Shown in pieces: positions 74 through 51,133 of a DNA stretch of 64,000 bases (position 1 is the stretch's first letter; each line of letters begins with the position of its first letter). Made by a program: the position numbers and the translations under genes. The stretch comes from Octopus vulgaris. Taxonomy: Eukaryota. The stretch covers positions 2,728,001 to 2,792,000 of the forward strand of contig OX597815.1 in assembly GCA_951406725.2 (NCBI GenBank), given 5' to 3'. A model generated the notes under the pieces. That model did no database searches. It was given only the letters and a program-made list of their open reading frames with translations, and had not been told where the DNA came from.

Positions 74-475
74 ATGTGGCTGTGTGGTAAGAAGCTCGCT
101 TCTCAACCCCATGGTTCCAGGTTCAGTCTCACAGAGTGGCACCATGGGTAAGTGTCTTCTACTATAGCCTCAAGCTGACCAAAGCCTCATGAGTGGATTT
201 GGTAGACAGAAACTGAAAGAAGTCTGTCGTATGTATATATATATGTGCGTGTGTGCATGTTGTGTGTACATGTTTGTATGTCTGCGTTTTTCCCCCCACC
301 ATCACTTCACCACTGATGTTGGTGTGTTTACATCCCATAACTTAGCGGTTTGGCAAAAAGACTGACAGAATAAGTACTTGGCTTACAAAGAATAAGTCCT
401 GGGGTCGATTTGTTTAACTAAAGACTGTGCTCCAGCATGACCACAGTCAAATAACTGAAACTAATAAAAGAATAA
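74..475 (+). mobile_element. tRNA-derived SINE family A
   Basis: Head TGGCTGTGTGGT (A box), GGTTCAGTC (B box), internal TA/TG tract, AAAGA tail. An inverted partial copy follows at 489-654. Confidence 0.85.
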
Positions 476-1983
476 ATATACACATACACATGATGGGCTT
501 CTTTCAGTTTCCGTCTTCCAAATCCACTTACAAGGCTTTGGTCGGCCTGAGGCTATTGTAGAAGACACTTGCCCAAGGTGTCACACAGTGGGACTGAACC
601 CGGAACCATGTGGTTGGTAAGCAAGCTACTTACCACACAGCCCCTCCTGCACCTTTGTCTACTCCTCTCTACACACATTTATATACACCTACCCACATGT
701 GTGTGTTTGCATGTTGAAATATATAACATTTGAATCATTATAGCCCTAGGCAAGCGTACACAGTGAACGCATGTGGCTTAGCATTTGCAGTATTTGGCTG
801 AGGAGCACAAAAATGTGCATTTAATTCCTGGCCTAGATCGTGTGTTGTGTGCTTGAGCAAGGCACTTCACTCCACATTACTCCAGCTAACTCAGCTGAAT
901 GACTGCTAGTGCAGCCCTTTCCTTCTCCACATCCTTAATTTTCCCTTGGGTCAAGGATGAGAGGACCATAAAGAGGATCCCTGTCTCCCCTCAAATACAT
1001 GGTCACTGAAACTAATAAGTGAAACACGGTAATGCTGCCAGGTCCTAATTGCTCGTGAGTGAGGGCTGACTGCATTCTAGATTCATAAATATGGGTGTGT
1101 GTGTGTGTGTGTGTTTACATGTGCATGTGTGTCTATGTATGCATATATGCGTGTGGTGTTCTCTAAAAGATTGGTATGTTGATGAGGCTACAAGGAAAGA
1201 GTAAAAATATGTAACATTTCGGGTAGTCCATGCAGTTAGCACACACACACACATACACACACACACGCACATACACACATACACGTACATACATACACGC
1301 ACACACACATACACGCACACACACACACACACCACAAAGTTGCTGCAAAGAAAAATTATTGACTGTTGAACTTCAGGTAAATATAATGATGATGATGAGG
1401 AGGAGGAGGAGGAAGTAATGAAGGGCAAAGAAAATTAAAGAGAGGGAAAGAAATAAAGTTAAATATCTCCCATTAAAGAGAAAAAAAAACTGTTACAATA
1501 TTGTAGACATGGGGAGGAAGGGGAGAAGTAGGAGAGAGAAAAGAAGCAAAGTTTATGAATATCATCATCGTCTTCATCATTTCATGTCCTTTTTTTTTCC
1601 ATGCCGTAATGGCTTGGATGGTTTGACAGGAACAGACAAGCCAGAGGGCGACACTGCATCACAATGTCTGCTTTGATGTGGATTCTACAGCTGGATGCCC
1701 TTCCAGGTGCCAACCACTCCACAGGGTGCTGTAGGTACTTTTTATTGTGGCACCAGCACTGGTGAGGATACCAAATACCTGTAAGGCAAAACTTCTTAAC
1801 TTAGCGGGGCATAATGTGGAAGGAGAGAGAGAGAGAGCCTTGAGGTCAAGGTTTAAGGTGAATGTGAGATAGAGAAATAGGAAAGAAGGAACAGAAAAGG
1901 TGGATGCGTAGGTAAGTGTGCTTGAGTGAGAATAAGATAGGGAATATACACACATATTTACACATGCATAGATATATACATAC

Positions 1984-6137: not shown

Positions 6138-6208
6138 ACATACACAGGGTGGCTCAAAAGTTACTTGACCATTTTAAAATGGAACTTTTTTAACAATCAA
6201 TTTTTTCA

Positions 6209-6344
6209 TTATTTACATTTAATGGATATTCGTCCTCATCTTGTTTGTTGTTAACACGTTTCGGCTGATATACCCTCCAGCCTTCATCAGGTATCTTGGG
6301 AAAATTTCGAACTTAGGTTCTCATTCCTAAGGCATTTTTTAATG

Positions 6345-6382
<38 letters not shown>

Positions 6383-6563
6383 TTCTATATTTAAGAGATG
6401 AGGAATTATTTACATTATTTACATTTGATGGATATTTGTCCTCATCTTGTTTGTTGTTAACATAACGTTTCAGCTGATATACCCTCCAGCCTTCATCAGG
6501 TGTCTTGGGGGAAATTTCAAACTTGGGTTCTCATTCCTAAAGTATTTTTCGATGTTGTTGTTG

Positions 6564-6604
<41 letters not shown>

Positions 6605-6785
6605 TTCTATATTTAAGAGATGAGGAATTATTTACATTATTTACATTTGATGGATATTTGTCCTCATCTTGTTTGTTGTTAACATAACGTTTCAGCTGAT
6701 ATACCCTCCAGCCTTCATCAGGTGTCTTGGGGGAAATTTCAAACTTGGGTTCTCATTCCTAAAGTATTTTTCGATGTTGTTGTTG

Positions 6786-6829
<44 letters not shown>

Positions 6830-7006
6830 TTCTATATTTAAGAGATGAGGAATTATTTACATTATTTACATTTGATGGATATTCGTCCTCATCTTGTTTG
6901 TTGTTAACACGTTTCGGCTGATATACCCTCCAGCCTTCATCAGGTGTCTTGGGGAAATTTCAAACTTGGGTTCTCATTCCTAAAGTATTTTTCGATGTTG
7001 TTGTTG

Positions 7007-7044
<38 letters not shown>

Positions 7045-7222
7045 TTCTATATTTAAGAGATGAGGAATTATTTACATTATTTACATTTGATGGATATTCG
7101 TCCTCATCTTGTTTGTTGTTAACACGTTTCGGCTGATATACCCTCCAGCCTTCATCAGGTGTCTTGGGGGAAATTTCAAACTTGGGTTCTCATTCCTAAA
7201 GTATTTTTCGATGTTGTTGTTG

Positions 7223-7263
<41 letters not shown>

Positions 7264-7441
7264 TTCTATATTTAAGAGATGAGGAATTATTTACATTATT
7301 TACATTTGATGGATATTCGTCCTCATCTTGTTTGTTGTTAACACGTTTCGGCTGATATACCCTCCAGCCTTCATCAGGTGTCTTGGGGGAAATTTCAAAC
7401 TTGGGTTCTCATTCCTAAGGTATTTTTCGATGTTGTTGTTG

Positions 7442-7479
<38 letters not shown>

Positions 7480-7656
7480 TTCTATATTTAAGAGATGAGG
7501 AATTATTTACATTATTTACATTTGATGGATATTCGTCCTCATCTTGTTTGTTGTTAACACGTTTCGGCTGATATACCCTCCAGCCTTCATCAGGTGTCTT
7601 GGGGAAATTTCAAACTTGGGTTCTCATTCCTAAAGTATTTTTCGATGTTGTTGTTG

Positions 7657-7694
<38 letters not shown>

Positions 7695-7872
7695 TTCTAT
7701 ATTTAAGAGATGAGGAATTATTTACATTATTTACATTTGATGGATATTCGTCCTCATCTTGTTTGTTGTTAACACGTTTCGGCTGATATACCCTCCAGCC
7801 TTCATCAGGTGTCTTGGGGGAAATTTCAAACTTGGGTTCTCATTCCTAAAGTATTTTTCGATGTTGTTGTTG

Positions 7873-7907
<35 letters not shown>

Positions 7908-8112
7908 TTCTATATTTAAGAGATGAGGAATTATTTACATTATTTACATTTGATGGATATTCGTCCTCATCTTGTTTGTTGTTAACACGTTTCGGCTGAT
8001 ATACCTTCCAGCCTTCATTAGGTGTCTTGTTCCTAAGGTAAACATCAAAAAATACCTTATCTGTCAAATGTAAATAATGTAGATAATCCCTCATCTCTTG
8101 AATATAGAACTG
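6209..8112 (-). repeat. Tandem array of 9 ~216-bp units, each with a hammerhead-ribozyme motif and a (GTT)n(ATT)n tract; retrozyme/Penelope pLTR-like
   Basis: TCATCAG (minus-strand CTGATGA) at 6284, 6493, 6715, 6937, 7152, 7371, 7587, 7802 and variant TCATTAG at 8015; spacing 209-222 bp. Inverted partial unit at ~8041-8112. Flanking direct repeat ATCAATTTTTTCA at 6196-6208 and 8117-8129. Confidence 0.9.
6905..6950 (-). ncRNA. Minimal type I hammerhead ribozyme motif (representative array unit; cleavage triplet deleted in this copy)
   Basis: Minus strand reads GACAC-CUGAUGA-A-GGCUG-GAGGGUAUAU-CAGCC-GAAA-C-GUGUU: core boxes, 5-bp stem II and stem I (GACAC/GUGUU) present. Units 2-3 retain GAAA-CG-UU. 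Confidence 0.75.
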
Positions 8113-9887
8113 TCTTATCAATTTTTTCAATTGTCAACAACAAAAAGGTAGTCATTTGAAGGATGTAGTTTTCAGAATTAATTGGAAAGGTTTTCCAAGA
8201 AGTTCTTTTGTTTACAATAGAGTAAAAGTGAAATTTTAATAAATAAAAGGGTTATTATATTCTGAAATGATCTAGAAACTTTTGGGCCACCCTTTTACAT
8301 GCTTGGTGTGGGCCTCCAACCCTTGATGGATAAATAAGAGTGGTGCAGCACATCTTGGGTATTTTAGATATAGCAAGGGTATCCTATACCCTTGCCAGGT
8401 TTGATCATTGTTAATTTCTGAGAGGGTGAAAAACAGTGGGGATGGATGGGGAAAGAAAGAGAAGGGGAAAGAGAGAGAGAGAAGGAAAGAGATGGACGTA
8501 GAAGAGCTGACCTCAGAACAAGGCCGGTACCTCGACTTTCATTCTTTCATGGTCAGTAAGGTTACCTTGACAGTATTTGAACTCAGAGTGAAGAGAACCA
8601 GAATTACCATTGGTTTCGAATTTTGGTACAAGGCCAGCAATTTCAGGGGTGGGGCAGTAAGTCAATCACATCGACCCTTAGTGCTCAACAGGTGCTTGTT
8701 TTATTGACCCCGAAAGGATGAAAAGCAAAAATCCAGATGAAACACCACAAAACATCTTCCCCAGTGTGTTAACAATTCTGCCAGCAATGGAAGGCAATCC
8801 AGCCATTGTTCATAAGTACTTCACCACTCACAATTCATCATCATCATCATCATTTAATGTCTGCTTTCCATGATAGCATGGGTTGGACGGTATAACTGAG
8901 GTCTGGAGAGCCAGGAGGCTGCACCAGGCTCCAATCTTGATCTGGCAATGTTTCTACAGCTGGATGTCCTTCCTAACACCAACCACTCTGAGCGTGTAGT
9001 GGGTGCTTTTTATGTGCCACCAGCACGGGGGCCAGTCAGGTGGTACTGGCAATGACCTTACTCAAATCTTTTTACACATGCCACCAGCACAGGTGCCAGT
9101 AAGGCGACGTTGGTAACTATCACGCTCAAATGGTGCCCTTTTATGTGCCACCGGCATAGAAGCCAGTTGGCTGCTCTGGCAATGATCACACTCGGATGGT
9201 GCCCTTGGCACCCTACTAGCACGGGCACAAGTACCAGTAAGGCGATGCTAGTAACGATGACACTCGAACGGTGCCTTTTATGTGCCAATGGCACGGAAGC
9301 CGGTTAGGCGCTCTGTCAACGATCACACTCCTAATTGAATGTAATTAAAGGAAGATTTGGCTGCTATTTCTAACAGGTTAAAGGATCACATGGAAGCTAC
9401 CATATTCGCTCATTCTCCATTTGGTATTAATGTAAGGTATTTAACCCTGTTCACTCCTTGTAATTAGTCATCGGAAGAGGGAATGGAAGTCTTGAACACT
9501 CCTTAATAAGTTTCTGGAGTTGCCACAAGAACACCAAACACAGGCCACTGCAATAACACAGGCAATGGTTTGTGTTATTGGAATGGATTTAGCTCAGCGC
9601 TTTACCAGCCTCATTAACACCTTACTCTCAGTAATAATTAGTCATAATAGTTATAATTAACTTTTAGTAATAAAAATAATAAAGAGGCCTTCACTTGCTA
9701 CAACAACACTAAACATACACTGTTACATGACACTCCTACAAACTGATCTTTGTGACAAAAACACTCACAAACACACCCCATACACACACACATGTATAAT
9801 GTATGTGTTTCCTAAACAAACGCATAAAGTTGAGAAACCTAAAACTGATGCAATGACTCATCATCTTTGAATGAATAAATAAATGCC

Positions 9888-19787: not shown

Positions 19788-20954
19788 AAGGTGGTATCAA
19801 AAAGTTCCCAGACTAGTTATGTTCAATAAACAACTTATTTGCCTATGTTTTAACATCATCTCCTATGAAATAGCCATCATGTGTAGCAATACACTGGTCC
19901 CAGAGTTCCTGCCACTTTTGGAATCTGGCCCGGAAATTGTTTTTTGTGAGTCGAGGACCTTCTGCAATTCATCCTGGATCTTGAAAACAGTGTTAAAACG
20001 GCAACCTTTGACCTGCATTTTAGTCTAGTGGAGGAGATGGAGGCCCACGGGTGCTAAACCTAGTGAATAAGATGCATGAAAAAGTGACGATATGTCGTTT
20101 TTGGTGAGAAGCTCCTGTGTGAGGAGAGCTCAGTGAGAGGCTGTATGGTGATGAAGAATCCAATTCTTTGCACTCCACACATTCGGACGCTTTCGCTGAA
20201 TGTCTTCCTTCAAACACTTCAAAATGCTGCAGCAGAACTCTCAATTGATAGTCTGGGGGAGGAATTGATGGTCTTGCCCAGGGGAACAAATTGATGGTCT
20301 GGCCTTGGGGGAGGAATTGATGGTTTGGCCCTGGAGGATGAATTGATGGTCTGGCCCTGGGGGACGAATTGATGGTCTGGCCCTGGGGGACGAATTGATG
20401 GTCTGGCCCTGGGGGGATGAATTGATGGTCTGGCCCTGGGGGGACAAATTGATGGTCTGGCCTTGGGGGATGAATTGATGGTCTGGCCCAGGGGAACAAA
20501 TTGATGGTCTGGCCTTGAGGGAGGAATTGATGGTCTGGCCCTGGAGGACGAATTGATGGTCTGGCCCTGGGGGATGAATTGATGGTCTGGCCCTGGGGGA
20601 GGAATTCATGGTCTGGCCCTGGGGGGACAAATTGATGGTCTGGCCCTGGGGGAGGAATTGATGGTCTGGCTCTGGGGGAGGAATTGATGGTCTGGCCCTG
20701 GGGGACAAATTGATGGTCTGGCCCTGGGGGAGGAATTGATGGTCTGGCCCTGGGGGACGAATTGATGGTCTGGCCCTGGGGGACGAATTGATGGTCCATG
20801 ACAAAATCGCAGGCTATAGCATCCATGTGATAAAAAAAACAAATTTCACAAAAACACAGCAATGTCACAGTGCACTTTCTCATGAGGGTCACGGCTAGCT
20901 CTCACTCTGCATCCAACCATGTGCTGCCATCTGTTGGCACACTATAGAACTAGT
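19788..20954 (-). mobile_element. Internally deleted mariner element with a dead transposase C-terminal half
   Basis: Minus strand translates HQFVPQGQTIN...ILKCLKEDIQRKRPNVWSAKNWILHH..SH*...HASYSLGLAP...*TKMQVKGCRFNT. TIR-like GGTGGTATCAAAAAGTTCCCAGACTAGTT at the left end; only AACTAGT remains at the right end. Confidence 0.85.
20243..20796. repeat. 26/27-bp minisatellite (~21 units, GAATTGATGGTCTGGCCCTGGGGGAC)
   Basis: AATTGAT recurs every 26-27 bp (20263, 20289, 20315 ... 20786). Confidence 0.95.
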
Positions 20955-21944: not shown

Positions 21945-22245
21945 GGAGGCGCAATGGCCCAGTGGTTAGGGCAGCGGACTCGTAGTCATAGGATCACGGT
22001 TTTGATTCCCAGTCCGGGTGTTGTGAGTGTTTATTGAGCGAAAACACCAAAAGCTCCACGAGGCTCCAGCAGGGGGTGGTGGCGATCTCTGCTGTATTCT
22101 TTTGCCACAACTTTCTCTCACTCTTTCTTCTGTTGGCCTGCTCGTTTAGCCAGCGTGGTGGCATCATTTGAAGGCTAAAACAATGCAAAGTGACCAGCGA
22201 TGTGTAACAACATCTGATAGCATGGTTGGTCACGGTGATCACGGT
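21945..22245 (+). mobile_element. tRNA-headed SINE (family D)
   Basis: TGGCCCAGTGG A box, GGTTTTGATTCCC B box, non-tRNA body, TA flanks. Confidence 0.7.
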
Positions 22246-40929: not shown

Positions 40930-41965
40930 GGGCCATCTCCTTCAACTCCTTTCAGGGAGATGGCTTCGCTTTGTATGTAAGAAGGGTTTAGCAGAAACCC
41001 CATACATTGGATCCAGTGCAAGCTTTGGACATGTAAGAGGTGCAGTGGTATCACAGGAAGGTTAACGGAAAATATAGTCTTTGTGTGTGGCAAATATGCA
41101 GGTAGAATAAGCACTAAAAATGCACAGACAGTAGACTCCCTCAAATGCTTGTGGGAATCATTAGAAGTAGTAGATAGCTTCTGTTACCTAGGAGACCAAG
41201 TTAGCAGGGGAGGAGGGAACTCTGAAAGTGTAGTTGCTAGGATAAGAACAGGCTGGGCAAAGTTCAGAGAGCTTCTACTTTTGTTGGTAACTAAGGGCTT
41301 CTCTCCTCCAGAGTGAAAAGCAGACTGTATGATGCCTGTGTACGTACAGCTATGCTGCATAGTAGTGAAACATGGGCTCTGACAACAGAGGATTTGCAAA
41401 GGCTTGAAAGAAATGAAAGCAGCATGCTTTGCTTGATGGGTAATGTCAGTGTGCATGCATGACAGAGCGTAAATGATTTGAGAGAGAAACTAGGTAACAT
41501 ATGAGGCATCATATGTTGTGTGCAAGAGAAAGAAGACTGTGCTGGTTTGGTCATGTGATGCATATGGATGAGGATAGCTGTATAAAGAAGTGCTTTACGT
41601 TATTTACATTTGATGGATATTTGTCCTAATCTTGTTTGTTGTTAACACAACATTTCGGCTAATAGTAATAATAATAACATCAAAAAATGCCTTAGGAATG
41701 AGAAGCCAGGTTCGAAATTTCCGCAAGACACCTGATGAAGTCTGGAGGGTATATCAGCCGAAACATTGTGTTAACAGCAAACAAAATGAGGACAAATATC
41801 CGTCAAATGTAAATAATCTAAATAATGTAAATAATTCCTCATCTCTTAAATATAGAACTGTAAAGAAGTGCTGAGCTCTACTTGTAGAGGGTGCTTGTGG
41901 AAGGGGTAGGCCCAGGAAGATGTGGGACAAAGTGGTGAGAAAGGCCCTTCAGATGCTGGGCTTCC
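40930..41965 (+). mobile_element. RTE-type LINE ORF 3' region (decayed), interrupted at 41595-41860
   Basis: Cys-rich motif remnants, LEVVDSFCYLGD...RIRTGWAKFRELL, LYDACVRTAMLHSSETWAL, WFGHVMHMDEDSCIKKC, then VEGACGRGRPRKMWDKVV after the insertion. Confidence 0.85.
41595..41860 (+). mobile_element. Dispersed copy of the hammerhead element with an inverted 5' fragment, inserted in an RTE LINE
   Basis: CTGATGA 41732-41738 ... CAGCC-GAAA-CA-TT-GTGTT at ~41755-41772. Inverted partial copy at 41597-41660. Direct repeat TAAAGAAGTGCT on both sides (41583-41594, 41861-41872). Confidence 0.85.
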
Positions 41966-42689: not shown

Positions 42690-43200
42690 AGGTGCTGGTT
42701 TCACGTCTAATGCATCCATGCTGGTTCCATGTCAAATGCCCCTGTACTGGTGCCACATCAAATGCAACCATGCTGGTTCCACGTCAAATGCACCCGTGCT
42801 GGTGCCCATGTCAACTGCACCCGTGCTGGTTCCATGTCAAGTGCACCCATGCTGGTTCCATGTCAAGTGCACCCATGCTGGTTCCATGTCAAGTGCACCC
42901 ATGCTGGTTCCATGTCAAGTGCACCCATGCTGGTTCCATGTCAAGTGCACCCATGCTGGTTCCATGTCAAGTGCACCCATGCTGGTTCCATGTCAACTGC
43001 ACCCGTGCTGGTGCCCATGTCAACTCTACCCGTGCTGGTGCCCATGTCAACTGCACCCGTGCTGGTTCCACGTCAAATGCACCTGTGCTGGTTCCACGTC
43101 AAATGCACCTGTGCTGGTGCCCATGTCAACTGCACCCATGCTGGTGCCCATGTCAACTGCACCTGTGCTGGTGCCCATGTCAACTGCACCCATGCTGGTA
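42690..43200 (+). repeat. 26/27-bp minisatellite (~19 units, TGCTGGTTCCATGTCAAGTGCACCCA) at the 5' side of a family C copy ending ~43357
   Basis: Direct tandem units; the last unit grades into the family C body. Confidence 0.9.
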
Positions 43201-44418
43201 CCACACAAGAAGCGCCTACTACACTGTAAAACAGTTGGCATTAGGAAGGGCATCCAGCTATAGAAACCATGTCAAAACAGACAACTGGAACCTGGTGCAG
43301 CTCCTGTCAAACTGTGCTACCCATTCCAGCATGGAAAACAGATGTCAAATGATGATGATAACACACACACACACACACACACACGGGCAATCATTACTTC
43401 CTCGTGCAGATGCTGGAACCATTTATATTTGTAGTTCATGTAGTTATCTCTTAGATGTATCATTTTGTGGGAAGCATTCACACCAGATATCGCATGTCCC
43501 TTATCCATCTATAGTGTTTTGGACAAACCTATAATGAGAGCCATTCCATCTGTGACAAACCAGCTTTATGAATATCTAGCATTTTATTGTGCAGGTTGTG
43601 TGTCTTTTTTAAGATAATTGTGTATGACCTGAAGGAGACTTGGCTGATATTTCTAGCAAATCAACGGACCATGTAGTGATTCTCTTGTTGGCTCATACAG
43701 GTTTTTCTTGTAGACATCATGAGCCCTGAGGATAGGGAATGGCATATTTTGATGTTAATGGTTTTCCTAAAGGGAACAGGAACAGCAAATAGAACATTTA
43801 TGGATGGAAATCATATCTAATTATAGACATCTCACCCTCCTCACACACAGGCTGTGGGAGATGGGATATAAGGAGTACAGAAAACCTGGACTTGGGAATT
43901 TCCAGAGCTCTCAGAAAATGTTTACATATATTGAAGACTAACATATGTTGAAGGGCCCCAAAAGTAACTTTGTATCTCTGATAAAATTCCTCTGAGAGGC
44001 CCTACATATGCGAGCATGTACCCCCTCTTCACAGTCTACAACATTGGTTGTAGTCTAAAAACACCACCTGGCTTAATACCATCCCTATCAACACCACCCC
44101 ACCTCCACCACATTGCTTGAGTCAATAATGGAATGTTTAATTGGCCACCCATCTCGCTAGAAATAGAAGCCAAATCTTCCTTGCATCACACCCAATCAGC
44201 TTAACCCTTTTAATGGGGAAATGTATATCTACTCAAAATTTCATTAGCTTTAACTGTGGAAAGAAGTTTTATTTACCAATCAACCTTTTGTTGAGACACA
44301 TTTTAATTCAAAACTTAACACAAATTAATACGACTTGCAGAAAAAAGCAATTTTATTTTCTGTAGATATTTAATGACATTATGTGAATGACTACGAAATT
44401 TAATTTTATAGTTAATGT

Positions 44419-45518: not shown

Positions 45519-48060
45519 TGTTCTTTTTATTTGAATATTATTTTACCTTCTCTTAATTCTCTCTTGAATATACAGTTATATGTCAATGAAACAAAGTCTT
45601 ATTTATTCCAGGCATAAAACAACAGGTTGTGCACTAGTGTCTTATATACTAAGTATTAATAGTTTTGGTGTGAACAGGCAGTTTATACCTTTCCTACCCA
45701 GAGGACAAATCTCTGATGCAAGTATGCATACTCATTCAAATGTACTGGGTGACATGCATGAAAACCTACATTTGGGAATATATTTTCAGAAACAACATAT
45801 ACTTGCATATCAAAACATACATATATTTGTGTACGCAAATGCACACAAACATAAACTCAGTCAGAAATACGTAAACATGATCACATGCACAAATCCACAG
45901 CTGTACACACATGCGCAGACGTTACCCTTTCACAGGACCATACTTTTATGGTAACAACTGCACACACACATACATACACACATGCACTATGAAATACAGG
46001 ATTGCAAGAGCATACACACACACACACACACACACACATGGGATGCTCAGAAACATATTCACAGAAAGAACCACACGCATGCACACACATATATAAATGA
46101 ACATGTGAAAATGTACAAAAATGCACAAGACATGCACACACAAGAATGCACATATGCACACATACACAAACCCAGACATGCATACATGAACTTATAAGCA
46201 CCCATGAACATATACACACACGTGCATAATTGAATGTATACGCACATATACATACTTGAACATGTACGTATGCATATGCAAATGTGCATATACAAGGGTA
46301 CATGCACATAATTGTACACAAATGTTCCAATAAAACAACACACACACACACACACACACACACATGGCAGCAAAATGACAAAGGTGTCAGAGTAGTGGAC
46401 AGAATGACTTGCAGTATTTGTTCTGACTCTCTGCACCCTGAGTTCAAATCCTGCCAAGGTCTGCTTTCAAGGTCAGTTAAAATAGTACCAATTCACAGTG
46501 GTGGATTAGCAGAACAGTTAGAGGGATCAAGTAAGGTGCCTTGTGCTATTTGTTTTAGCTAATTTTCTATTCTGACAGCAATGTCTGTGGGTGGCATTGG
46601 TGCCAAGCTGTATTGGCCCAATTCTATGGCATCTTCCTTGGATAAATATCAATAGAGAGGAGAGGGAAGAAATTTGCATACATGGGCAAATACTAGTCTT
46701 TCATTCAAAATATTTTGACCAGCTCTGCACATACATGTCATCATCATTTAATGTCCGCTTTCCATGCTGGCATGAGTTGGACAGTTTGACTCAGGACTGG
46801 CAAGCCAGGAGGCCGCAGAAGGCTCCAATCTGATCTGGCAAGGTTTCTACAGCTGGATGCCCTTCCTAACGCCAACCACTCCGAGAGTGTAGTGGGTGCT
46901 TTTTACATGCCATCGGTATAGGGACAGTACTGGCATCGACTGCACATGAATGGTGCTTTTACATGCCACTGGCATGAGAGCCAGACAGGTGGCACTGACA
47001 ATGACCACATTCAAATGGTGCTTTTTACGTGCCACCAGCATGGGAGCCAGTCAGGAGGCCCTGACAACGACCATACTTGAATGGTGCTTTTTTTGAATGG
47101 TGCACAGGTATCACAACTACAATTTCCATTTGATTTTTTGATCTAGAAATAAATCAATATCTATAACAGATCAATACCTGGTACATATATAACTATAGAA
47201 GTACCAGGCACACAGTACCCAGAATATTTTGCAATAGATTACATATACACATAGCTGCAGATATAACTCCATATATAATACCGAATACACATATACAACC
47301 AGGGCTTCTGAGATGAAATTTCACGAAGTGACACAAAGTTTCTTTTTGATTCCTTTACAAACATGAATTATTATGTGTATCTCTGGAATTCTAGGAAGTT
47401 CCTGGGCTCACCTATGTCCCTCTCGCAGCTTCCTAATGACCATCACCCTCATGCATAGTTCAGATGCGAGTACATAAGGGTAGATTTTTCTATAGCTGGG
47501 CACCCTCCCTGATGCTAAATCCCACCCGTTTCCAAGTGAGGCAATAAATCACACACAGTCTATTAAACAACAAGCAACCTAAACATGTTTATGTGGAGAC
47601 CTGGAAACAAACGGCACTGACACAAGTATTTCTGTTTATGCTAATTAAGCTACATGAGAAAACATGTAAAGAAGCCTGGCCATGCATTCATCATGGACTG
47701 CATGCAAATGACATCTTTAGCATTAGCAAAACTATCATTTACAAATCTGTGAATGAACACATGTAGACTTGGGAGCTACAGACTTGCTCTCAGAAGCACA
47801 CACACTCACATAGATGTGTGTGTGTGTGTGTGTGAATAAAGAATGGGGGAAATGAAAAGTGGAGTTTGTAAGAATTTTTATTCAACACAACAATTGTTTT
47901 GACCCAACCTGCATCAGTCCCTGAACGATGTGGTTCGGAAGCAAACTTCATACCACACAGCCATGCCTGTACCTATACTTAGAACAAGCAGGCAGAAACG
48001 TTAGCACGCCGGGTGAAATGCATAGCCGTATTTCGTCTGCCATTACGTCCTGAGTTCAAA

Positions 48061-48300
48061 TATTTGAGAAATGAGGTATCATGTACATTTACATTTTCGG
48101 CAGATATTTGTCTTCATCTTGTTTGTTGTTAACACAATGTCTCGGCTGATATACCCTCCAGCCTTCATCAGGTGCTTTGGGGAAATTTCAGAACCTGGGT
48201 TCTCATTCCTAAGGCATTTTTCGATATTATTATTATTAATATTCAGGTCACTGCCTGGAATCGAACTTGGGCATATAGCGTAGTGGTTAAGAGCGTGGGC
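48061..48300 (-). mobile_element. Hammerhead element copy adjoining a tRNA-like head (B box on minus strand, inverted A-box fragment)
   Basis: TCATCAG 48165-48171 with the same stem II. After the (ATT)n tract the minus strand reads GTTCGATTCC (48257-48266, B box), then + strand TAGCGTAGTGG (48276-48286, A box). Confidence 0.7.
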
Positions 48301-49657
48301 TTATTCTTGCCTAATGTTGTCTTTGGCCATTTTCTCTTTTAACTGTAACTCTTAAAGAAATGCAGGGACGGAGGGAGCAAGTGAAATTGATGGTGCAGCA
48401 AGAAATGGTGCAACTGCACAGTACAGTGGAGAGAAAAATTGGAATCTGGATATAGCGAGGTCAAACTATATCATTCAGTCAACTACCTGGACCTGGTCAA
48501 TCAAAACTGACCAGTAGCTGCACAACAACTATGGACATCTTTATGGTCACTTGCTTAATTACCATCATCATTTAATGTTAGTCTTCCAGGTCAGCATGGG
48601 TTGGGTGGGATCTGGTGAACCAGTGGATTATGTCAACCTTCAAGGTCTGCTTTGGCATGGTTTCTATGGCTGGGTGCCCTGTCTAATACCAAACACTTTA
48701 CAGAGTGTACTGGAATGCTTTTTATGTGGCACCAGCACTAATGAAGTCACCAAGAAACTCACAAGACACGACCACTCAACCGAGTGGGAGAGGAGTATTG
48801 AGGGAGGTGGGTTTGTGGCCATGTGATGTGAGGCTGAAGAATGATAAGAGGACTGAAACAGAAAGGGTCTTGCAGTGGTGGAGATAGATGGCTGCCTCGC
48901 TTGGAAAAGAGAGGAAAGTGAAAGAAAGACAAGATGGTGGTGAAGATGTGCCTGGTTGGGCCCTAAAGTTACAAGGAGGTGAATAAGTTGAGAGAGTGGG
49001 GTAGGGTGACAGATGGATAGAAATGGGGATAGAGGGGAATGCAGGGATTGGTGAACTCAGGTGGATGGGTTGGTGATAGGTAGAGGAGAGATTCATTAGG
49101 GATGCATGGTGTGTAGGGGCACAAACATAAAATAATTTTAGGGCCCCATTTTTGCTTTGATTGTTGGGTCTTCTTGAACCAAATCTTACAAAGCATGTTC
49201 CACTGTCTTTTTTTTTTATGAAAGACATCAGGTTTTAAGGGAGAAATCTTAGAACAATATATATTTAATGTCAAAGTCATTTGGATCTGTTAGGGAAATG
49301 TCACTTGGTTCTCCAAAAGATGTTAATTAGATGAAATATAAATCTCTTGCTGGCATCAAGCAGTTTGGTAAACTGAAGTGATGCTCAGATGAAAGAAAGG
49401 ACAACCGAAATAAGCAACAAAGCAATACACACACATGTGCATATATACACACACATATACACATGTGCACACATACAGACACATACACATATATACATGC
49501 ACATGCACATATACATGCACATGCATATACACATATGCACATGCATATACACATATGCACATGCATATACACATATATACATGCACATACACATATACAT
49601 GCACATACATATACACATAAACAAGCACATATATACATATGTGCATACATATACATG

Positions 49658-50540: not shown

Positions 50541-51133
50541 CTTTACTACCCACAAGGGGCTAAACACAGAGGGGACAAACAAGGACAGACAAATGGATTA
50601 AGTCGATTACATCGACCCCAGTGCGTAACTGGTACTTAATTTATCGACCCCGAAAGGATGAAAGGCAAAGTCGATCTCGGTGGAATTTGAACTCAGAACG
50701 TAACGGCAGACAAAATACCCATTTCTTTACTACCCACAATGGGCTAAACACAGAGAGGACAAACAAGGACAGACAAACGGATTAAGTCGATTACATCGAC
50801 CCCAGTGCGTAACTGGTACTTAATTTATCGATCCCGAAAGGTATGAAAGGCAAAGTCGATCATGGTGGAATTTGAACTCAGAACGTAACGGCAGACAAAA
50901 TACCCATTTCTTTACTACCCACAATGGGCTAAACACAGAGAGGACAAACAAGGACAGACAAATGGATTAAGTCGATTACATCGACCCCAGTGCGTAACTG
51001 GTACTTAATTTATCGACCCCGAAAGGATGAAAGGCAAAGTCGACCTCGGCGAAATTTGAACTCAGAACGTAACGGCAGACGAAATACGGCTACGCATTTC
51101 ACCCGGCGTGCTAACGTTTCTGCCAGCTCGCCA
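50541..51133 (-). mobile_element. SINE family B tandem trimer (~185-bp period)
   Basis: CTTTACTACCCACAA starts at ~50541, 50724 and 50910; only the last unit has the head. Confidence 0.9.

Follow-up and report, generated by a model that had tools for sequence, protein, structure and literature searches.

A terminal repeat with a tRNA-like head at 48 kb

The stretch of Octopus vulgaris DNA analysed here (the window, 64,000 nucleotides) contains, at 48061-48301, a 5'-truncated, 5'-inverted terminal repeat (pLTR) of a protein-coding Penelope-like element (PLE), whose parts are listed in Table 1 together with two other copies. The minus strand carries, in order, the 3' half of a tRNA-like head, an (AAT)n spacer and a 165-nt body that holds a hammerhead core. 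On the plus strand, the beginning of the head is present as an inverted arm, which matched a tRNA profile at E 0.064. The initial annotation had described an (AAT)n tract that runs, in the sense of the ribozyme, into a B box, with an inverted A box adjoining it, and both observations held. Because the A box lies on the strand opposite to the B box, this copy cannot serve as a sense Pol III template. The two head pieces overlap by 3 nt, and family positions 412-426 are absent. The same inverted junction was found at three other loci (L003, L005 and L014), where the inverted arms extend through the body.

The hammerhead core of the window copy is damaged by two changes (GAGAC for GAAAC and ATT for GTT), and the ribozyme is predicted to be inactive. 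Neither a tRNA nor a hammerhead was called when Rfam and ARAGORN were run on the window. The copy has no target duplication and adjoins half of another repeat, which points to a later deletion. This neighbour (48000-48061) is part of an abundant repeat with about 15 matches within the window; it meets the pLTR copy at a short shared word, and its remainder is missing on the other side.

Table 1. Features of the window and, in the last seven rows, landmarks on the family scale, which is that of the natural copy L040:1501-2144.
Feature	Position	Strand	Basis
Headless tandem array of the pLTR, ~8.5 units of 215 bp	6209..8112	-	sequence, blastn
Short inverted tail arm of the headless array	8058-8112	+	sequence
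Third copy, headless, with short inverted arm	41595..41860	+	sequence, blastn
pLTR body (ORF start), finishing in the optional tail (48061-48086)	48061..48225	-	sequence comparison with family copies
Minimal type-I hammerhead motif, Penelope kind	48131..48175	-	sequence; features as described in part of PMC4209133
ATG, putative start of the RT-endonuclease ORF	48204..48206	-	translations of L243, L234, L235, L242; relative P0005
(AAT)n spacer joining head to body	48226..48245	-	sequence
3' half of tRNA-like head	48246..48270	-	sequence, blastn
B box, within the 3' half of the head	48257..48266	-	
Inverted 5' arm, initial 33 nt of tRNA-like head (family positions 379-411)	48269..48301	+	blastn vs natural copy L040, 91%
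A box	48276..48286	+ (opposite to B box)	sequence
L040 scale: ORF stop	347-349		
L040 scale: hairpin	372-383		
L040 scale: tRNA-like head	379-451		
L040 scale: A box	from 386		
L040 scale: B box	from 431		
L040 scale: (AAT)n	452-474		
L040 scale: body	475-644		

Head, spacer and body recur as one collinear unit

A search of the genome (2.8 Gb) returned 958 exact matches to the intact 44-nt hammerhead core, with none in a reversed control, and 2,330 matches to a 34-nt head pattern. Evenly spaced samples adding up to 400 kb contained 4 loci, which supports a rough copy number of about 28,000 loci (95% range 7,600-72,000) and is too few for end statistics. Among loci picked solely by the hammerhead core (the first 90 among 100 core matches listed; these all come from C1 and the beginning of C2), 50 carry a collinear head piece directly upstream. 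When loci were instead picked solely by the head (40 from the first 44 listed, after removal of three duplicates of the earlier set and one partner arm), the head continued into the body in 34. Since the head-body arrangement recurs in both sets, it is real: the full unit is a tRNA-like head, (AAT)n and a hammerhead body, as the initial annotation had proposed. The check put forward there was for a collinear A box-B box head 5' of the hammerhead across copies; a collinear head piece is what the core-selected loci show in 50 of 90 cases.

All six heads without a body break within the (AAT)n tract, some with other repeats at that place, and two of the six are duplicates of each other; a free parent SINE made of the head and (AAT)n alone was not established from these loci. 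At L261, L255 and L257, other repeats are lodged inside the (AAT)n tract. The insert at L261 resembles what we take to be the endonuclease region of an R4/Dong-type LINE.

All 40 head loci matched a profile built from 12 tRNA genes of the same genome (E<=1, best 2e-8). The A and B boxes of the head are spaced by 35 nt, compared with 34 in two Arg tRNA genes of the genome, and among the roughly nine isotypes sampled the head aligned best to Ala and Arg tRNA genes. Rfam and ARAGORN did not call the head of family copies a tRNA, and a cloverleaf was not recognised; lowering the ARAGORN threshold produced many spurious calls, which we disregarded. The boxes are conserved among copies at 0.92 and the body at 0.94.

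The unit is the terminal repeat of a coding element

Endonuclease-like coding sequence lies just upstream of the head in several copies, and partial tandems place the head immediately ahead of an ORF. Among the 30 best loci for the endonuclease sequence, the head sits about 30 nt past the ORF stop in 29; the body score was passed by 26 of these loci and the head score by 29. The order head-(AAT)n-hammerhead-ORF was read in L231, L234, L235 and L243, and two of these, L231 and L235, run from an ORF end through head and hammerhead to an ORF start. In ORF-linked copies, a frame that begins with an ATG 19 nt inside the body passes through the hammerhead and the tail into the ORF (translations of L243, L234, L235 and L242). 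The ‘body’ is in fact the initial ~50 codons of the RT-endonuclease ORF, and the relative P0005 has the same N-terminal segment, colinear with it. Of 20 ORF-start loci fetched from 40 scored, 17 have the tail ahead of the ORF. We also considered the tail as an intron that provides the start codon, an idea ruled out by the upstream ATG in frame through hammerhead and tail, by 3-nt and 9-nt variants that preserve the frame and by the colinearity of P0005; no GT..AG skip of the tail was present among the 15 RNA-seq joints listed of 34.

From the ORF stop, the unit of about 2.6 kb continues with a 30-nt stretch and a hairpin, then with the tRNA-like head, its A and B boxes included, and the (AAT)n tract; after the ATG come the hammerhead, the tail, RT and the GIY-YIG-type endonuclease. 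L061 is a near-complete 2.6 kb unit with a match to RVT_1 (Pfam RT) above cut-off, and the protein of the element is 36% identical to the Anolis protein P0073 across RT and endonuclease. The Pfam search gave no direct GIY-YIG match in the endonuclease region of L061. This region aligns to the corresponding region of P0073, and a member of the same clade, P0050, matched GIY-YIG (PF01541) at 1e-5. Telomerase and group II RT chains were among the weak matches of the family profile to the PDB. The putative hammerhead of the pLTR has the core, an extra base ahead of stem II, a stem II of 5-6 bp, a stem I of 4-5 bp and a palindromic stem III; as far as its sequence goes, it fits the minimal hammerhead of PMC4209133, as described in part of that paper, and Rfam gave no hammerhead match in family copies.

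Because the head follows the ORF stop, the body opens the ORF in frame and the hammerhead leads into the ORF, the repeat is almost certainly the pLTR of a PLE with a C-terminal endonuclease. The initial annotation had proposed a SINE that parasitises a PLE rather than a LINE. A PLE, not a LINE, does move the unit; the stand-alone SINE fell away, as the unit is the element's own pLTR. The family looks old, since 62 aligned pieces deviate by 3.4-7.6% from the column majorities and no intact copy or intact ORF was seen among the family copies aligned. A search for a closer sister family in the genome, with part of P0005 as the query, gave 150 scored matches that were all 53-62% identical, and the four fetched belong to the same family.

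Copies end and pair like Penelope insertions

An inverted arm lies upstream in 52 of the 90 core-selected loci. The 90 loci have their 3' ends at either of two sites, separated by about 30 nt (46 with the tail, 41 short and 3 broken), and 38 of 44 unbroken head-to-head pairs have one end of each type (P about 1e-6). The flanks had words of at least 8 nt in common at 32 of 90 loci, compared with about 2.6 in controls; target duplications measure 8-16 bp, and inverted junctions fall at self-complementary words. For PLEs, features named in part of PMC8557442 are 5' truncation, inverted 5' copies and, at one end, a tail of 30-40 bp; the Anolis element PAc, according to part of PMC11167929, nicks both target strands and uses two internal priming sites that bound the tail.

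The 5' ends are concentrated just ahead of the A box. Fifty arms extend as far as the head: 34 have their end at 371-397 (0.040 per nt), 9 at 398-453 (0.0034) and 3 at 183-370 (0.0028), with none at 338-370; the excess at 371-397 is 12- to 14-fold per base, some positions having been corrected by eye. The modal end is position 372, where 12 arms end exactly, 14 nt ahead of the A box, a distance that fits a type 2 Pol III start. Another 20 ends, in copies without a visible inverted arm (classed by eye), also lie within 372-397, and three such copies (L135, L173 and L196) are bounded by target duplications. The pile-up coincides with a hairpin at 372-383, extendable to 362-389, and almost every end at 372 continues into fold-back sequence, so that template switching could produce the pile-up without an RNA start.

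Along the sense strand, no run of four T-majority columns occurs in 2,330 columns. Against codon shuffles, the lack of T runs gave P 0.012 for L061 and 0.073 for the column majorities, and Phe codons are TTT:TTC 5:14 (P 0.048); as a signal, the absence of TTTT is weak. At 46 related loci from metagenome contigs, the overall number of T runs matched expectation (281 versus 271), and four of the 46 have none in the RT-endonuclease region.

In RNA-seq data mapped to L235 (three runs from one study, about 6% of each), both strands were covered equally and depth mirrored copy number, with about 3,000-fold over the body and about 10 over the ORF, as is expected of host read-through over many copies. 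None of the three runs had a start-site pile-up. A search for sequencing runs that contain the element listed none recorded as RNA. In L235:250-901, A>G and T>C variant sites were about twice as frequent in RNA runs as in a DNA-type run (P 0.01-0.03), the runs being from differently labelled organisms; this excess may reflect A-to-I editing of hairpins from head-to-head copies.

A second lineage with boxes in the same place

We placed the element among its relatives with a quick version of a tree, from which relatives with fragmentary matches, including L297, were excluded. It falls in a clade of 27 rows, separate from the one with Anolis P0073, a protein that may be PAc. In the 3' regions of 33 relatives, boxes scored above all shuffles in one, L311, where A and B boxes plus AATAATAAT lie between the stop and the hammerhead, in the same place as in the octopus element (score 20.8 against a shuffle maximum of 9.9). 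L311 belongs to the same 27-row clade and is not the sister of the octopus element; the clade members L287, L288 and L293 have no head. The L311 unit contains two TTTT (P 0.16), and Rfam and ARAGORN called neither a tRNA nor a hammerhead in it. This metagenome contig (1510-1610 and 4300-4400) represents a distant Penelope-like element with a 2,791-bp unit, an open frame of 901 codons and the box spacing of a long variable arm. Between stop and hammerhead, the octopus element has no TATA-like word or T-rich tract, which are present in 13 of 15 relatives with a called hammerhead, L311 excluded.

The head as a promoter, a passenger or part of a SINE

We cautiously favour the reading that the tRNA-like head of the pLTR is a Pol III-type internal promoter that would set the start of the RNA, a proposal drawn from sequence. 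In its favour are boxes at the spacing of tRNA genes, the concentration of 5' ends ahead of the A box, the weak depletion of T runs and the boxes of L311. It has to contend with the hairpin at the pile-up, the weak T-run signal, the TTTT in L311, the flat RNA-seq profile, boxes that are kept no better than the body and clade members that have no head. There is a real, if lesser, possibility that the segment is a passenger in the same PLE, such as an old SINE head inserted into the repeat, with transcription by Pol II and with 5' ends piling up where the hairpin and short palindromes favour RT jumps. The hairpin at the modal end and the self-complementary words at inverted junctions suit this account, as do RNA-seq data without a promoter sign, T-run depletion that is only marginal and the 32 of 33 relatives that do without the head. 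The ends themselves suit it less well: a stall at the hairpin should leave them at its 3' foot (about 389) rather than at its 5' edge, with none at 338-370, and the pile-up is also found in copies without an inverted arm. Also set against a passenger are a spacer that lacks the TATA-like word or T-rich tract of 13 of 15 relatives and boxes in the same place in a second lineage, L311.

If head, (AAT)n and hammerhead made up a tRNA-derived SINE that propagates independently from masters of its own and is moved in trans by a Penelope-like partner, several observations would fit: most copies reaching the head start there (34 of 50), have target duplications and far outnumber ORF-bearing copies. 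Sm-alpha provides a precedent for a tRNA head with a hammerhead (part of PMC2770079). We nevertheless consider such an independent SINE improbable. The whole unit is collinear with the end of the coding element, and the body codes for protein. After correction, none of 17 variable columns, 15 of them at CpG, tells the 63 short copies from the 43 ORF-linked ones; the lowest P values, 0.022 and 0.041, both belong to CpG sites and are uncorrected. The (AAT)n tract is internal, and instead of a simple-repeat or A-rich terminus the 3' ends fall at two PLE-type sites. The PAc template, moreover, needs ORF sequence past the tail (part of PMC11167929), which solo copies here do not have. That an unrelated SINE head came to lie beside a hammerhead repeat by chance might be suggested by the inverted A box of the window copy and by the six of 40 head loci with no body following. 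It is so improbable as to be negligible, since the collinear order recurs in separately selected loci (50/90, 34/40 and 29/30) and the six body-less heads break in (AAT)n.

If the head is a Pol III-type promoter, transcription would start about 14 nt upstream of the A box and could proceed into the ORF, since the sense strand has no TTTT. The protein would come either from translation of this RNA or from Pol II read-through. By analogy with Anolis PAc (part of PMC11167929), the protein would nick both target strands and start reverse transcription internally, at the short-end and tail-end sites. Priming in the first repeat of the RNA would yield a product of 240-270 nt that ends at the head, giving SINE-like copies, and priming in a downstream repeat would yield longer, ORF-bearing copies. 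Two cDNAs primed off opposite strands and joined at short self-complementary words would form head-to-head pairs. The window copy would be such a pair, most of whose inverted arm was lost later.

A broader version is tentative and, in our judgement, somewhat doubtful: that some coding PLEs swapped the Pol II promoter of the pLTR for a tRNA-derived Pol III promoter, at least twice (the octopus family and L311), with one terminator-free Pol III RNA templating both full elements and tens of thousands of short copies and possibly serving as an uncapped mRNA, so that an autonomous retrotransposon would be its own SINE. Pol III RNA is uncapped, which counts against a Pol III promoter in the narrower version as well. 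In addition, Pol III is regarded as poorly processive, and Kojima argues that the autonomous partners of TRIMp3 must use Pol II (both from part of PMC10886601); the characterised Penelope promoter, that of D. virilis, is LINE-like and internal, with a DPE (part of PMC2377424).

Pol III promoters are generally regarded as restricted to short retroelements that do not code for protein. If true, a Pol III promoter in a coding PLE would show how an autonomous element can give rise directly to SINE-like repeats, and it would suggest a testable origin for Sm-alpha and other hammerhead-bearing SINEs. With both RNA ends and the two priming sites preserved in its many copies, the family is a natural read-out of how PLEs work, a mechanism that is poorly known. 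Copies of this kind are readily misfiled in annotation as SINEs or tRNA pseudogenes. Our literature search, judged by title and the opening of the abstract, found no description of a PLE with a tRNA-derived Pol III promoter; an unpublished library entry in Repbase or Dfam may exist.

Comparison with known elements

Comparisons with published elements draw on parts of the cited papers. The octopus element shares with Penelope/Poseidon-type PLEs, such as PAc (Poseidon_Ac of Anolis carolinensis) and D. virilis Penelope, a single ORF with RT followed by a C-terminal GIY-YIG-type endonuclease, a pLTR with a minimal hammerhead that overlaps the ORF start and an optional 30-40 bp tail, as well as heavy 5' truncation, inverted 5' copies, partial tandems and AT-rich targets (PMC11167929, PMC4209133, PMC2377424, PMC8557442). 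The ORF of PAc starts within the hammerhead, much as in the octopus element (PMC11167929). What sets the octopus pLTR apart from these PLEs is its (AAT)n spacer and a tRNA-like segment with A and B boxes; D. virilis Penelope, with its LINE-like DPE promoter, also differs in having an intron (PMC2377424).

The schistosome SINE-like repeats Sm-alpha and Sj-alpha also have a tRNA-derived head followed by a hammerhead, reach high copy number and form tandem copies (PMC2770079, PMC6765202). The schistosome repeats are reported as apparently transcribed by Pol III and are described as non-coding, with canonical hammerheads and a tRNA-Gln-like head, whereas the octopus unit carries a minimal hammerhead and serves a coding element as its terminal repeat and the start of its ORF. 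The initial annotation had called a ribozyme-bearing tRNA SINE unusual. A tRNA-derived head joined to a hammerhead is already known from these repeats and is not new by itself; what is unusual is the tRNA-like head inside the terminal repeat of a coding PLE. In the TRIMp3 elements Helenus, Ajax and Cassandra, too, a segment of tRNA or 5S origin lies within a terminal repeat; there it is a Pol III-type promoter, for which an origin through SINE insertion has been proposed (PMC10886601). These are non-autonomous LTR elements with a PBS and PPT, whereas the octopus segment lies in the own repeat of a coding PLE, whose copies have inverted arms and whose target duplications vary.

tRNA-derived SINEs were reportedly described from octopus by Ohshima and Okada in 1994. 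Set beside the octopus element by description alone, they share a tRNA-derived head; they differ in that the octopus element has no sign of a LINE-type 3' end and its partner is a PLE. OR1 has been named as a CORE-SINE (PMC4824008). Octopus annotation counts 190 Penelope-like families, 6.83% (part of the supplement of PMC13282606), and the head-bearing pLTR structure is not described in the examined parts of PMC13282606 and PMC8967140.

Other copies and repeats

The array at 6.2-8.1 kb represents a single insertion, flanked on both sides by 13 duplicated bp (6196-6208 and 8117-8129). Its units link the tail to (AAT)n at a shared CTG/CAG, with no head in between, in agreement with the initial annotation, which had described headless units that rejoin the 3' end of the element. 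Within this array (6196-8129), units 2-3 differ from units 4-9, and the latter lack 3 nt of the hammerhead core, which suggests that the array expanded once it had inserted, or that it was copied from an RNA that was multimeric or circular. The copy at 41.6 kb is a single insertion with a 12-bp target duplication (41583-41594 and 41861-41872).

Positions 21949-22013 (+) of the window match the tRNA profile of the genome strongly (E 4e-8), were not called by ARAGORN or Rfam and are probably a tRNA pseudogene or SINE head. Elsewhere in the genome, L202 (G000:C12:25267077-25270148) has seven Cys-type tRNA genes or pseudogenes clustered in 3 kb. Tandem arrays occupy 20253-20796, 42693-43203 and 50541-51087, with periods of 26 bp, 26 bp and 185 bp, respectively, and the 185-bp unit overlaps the repeat seen at 48000-48061.
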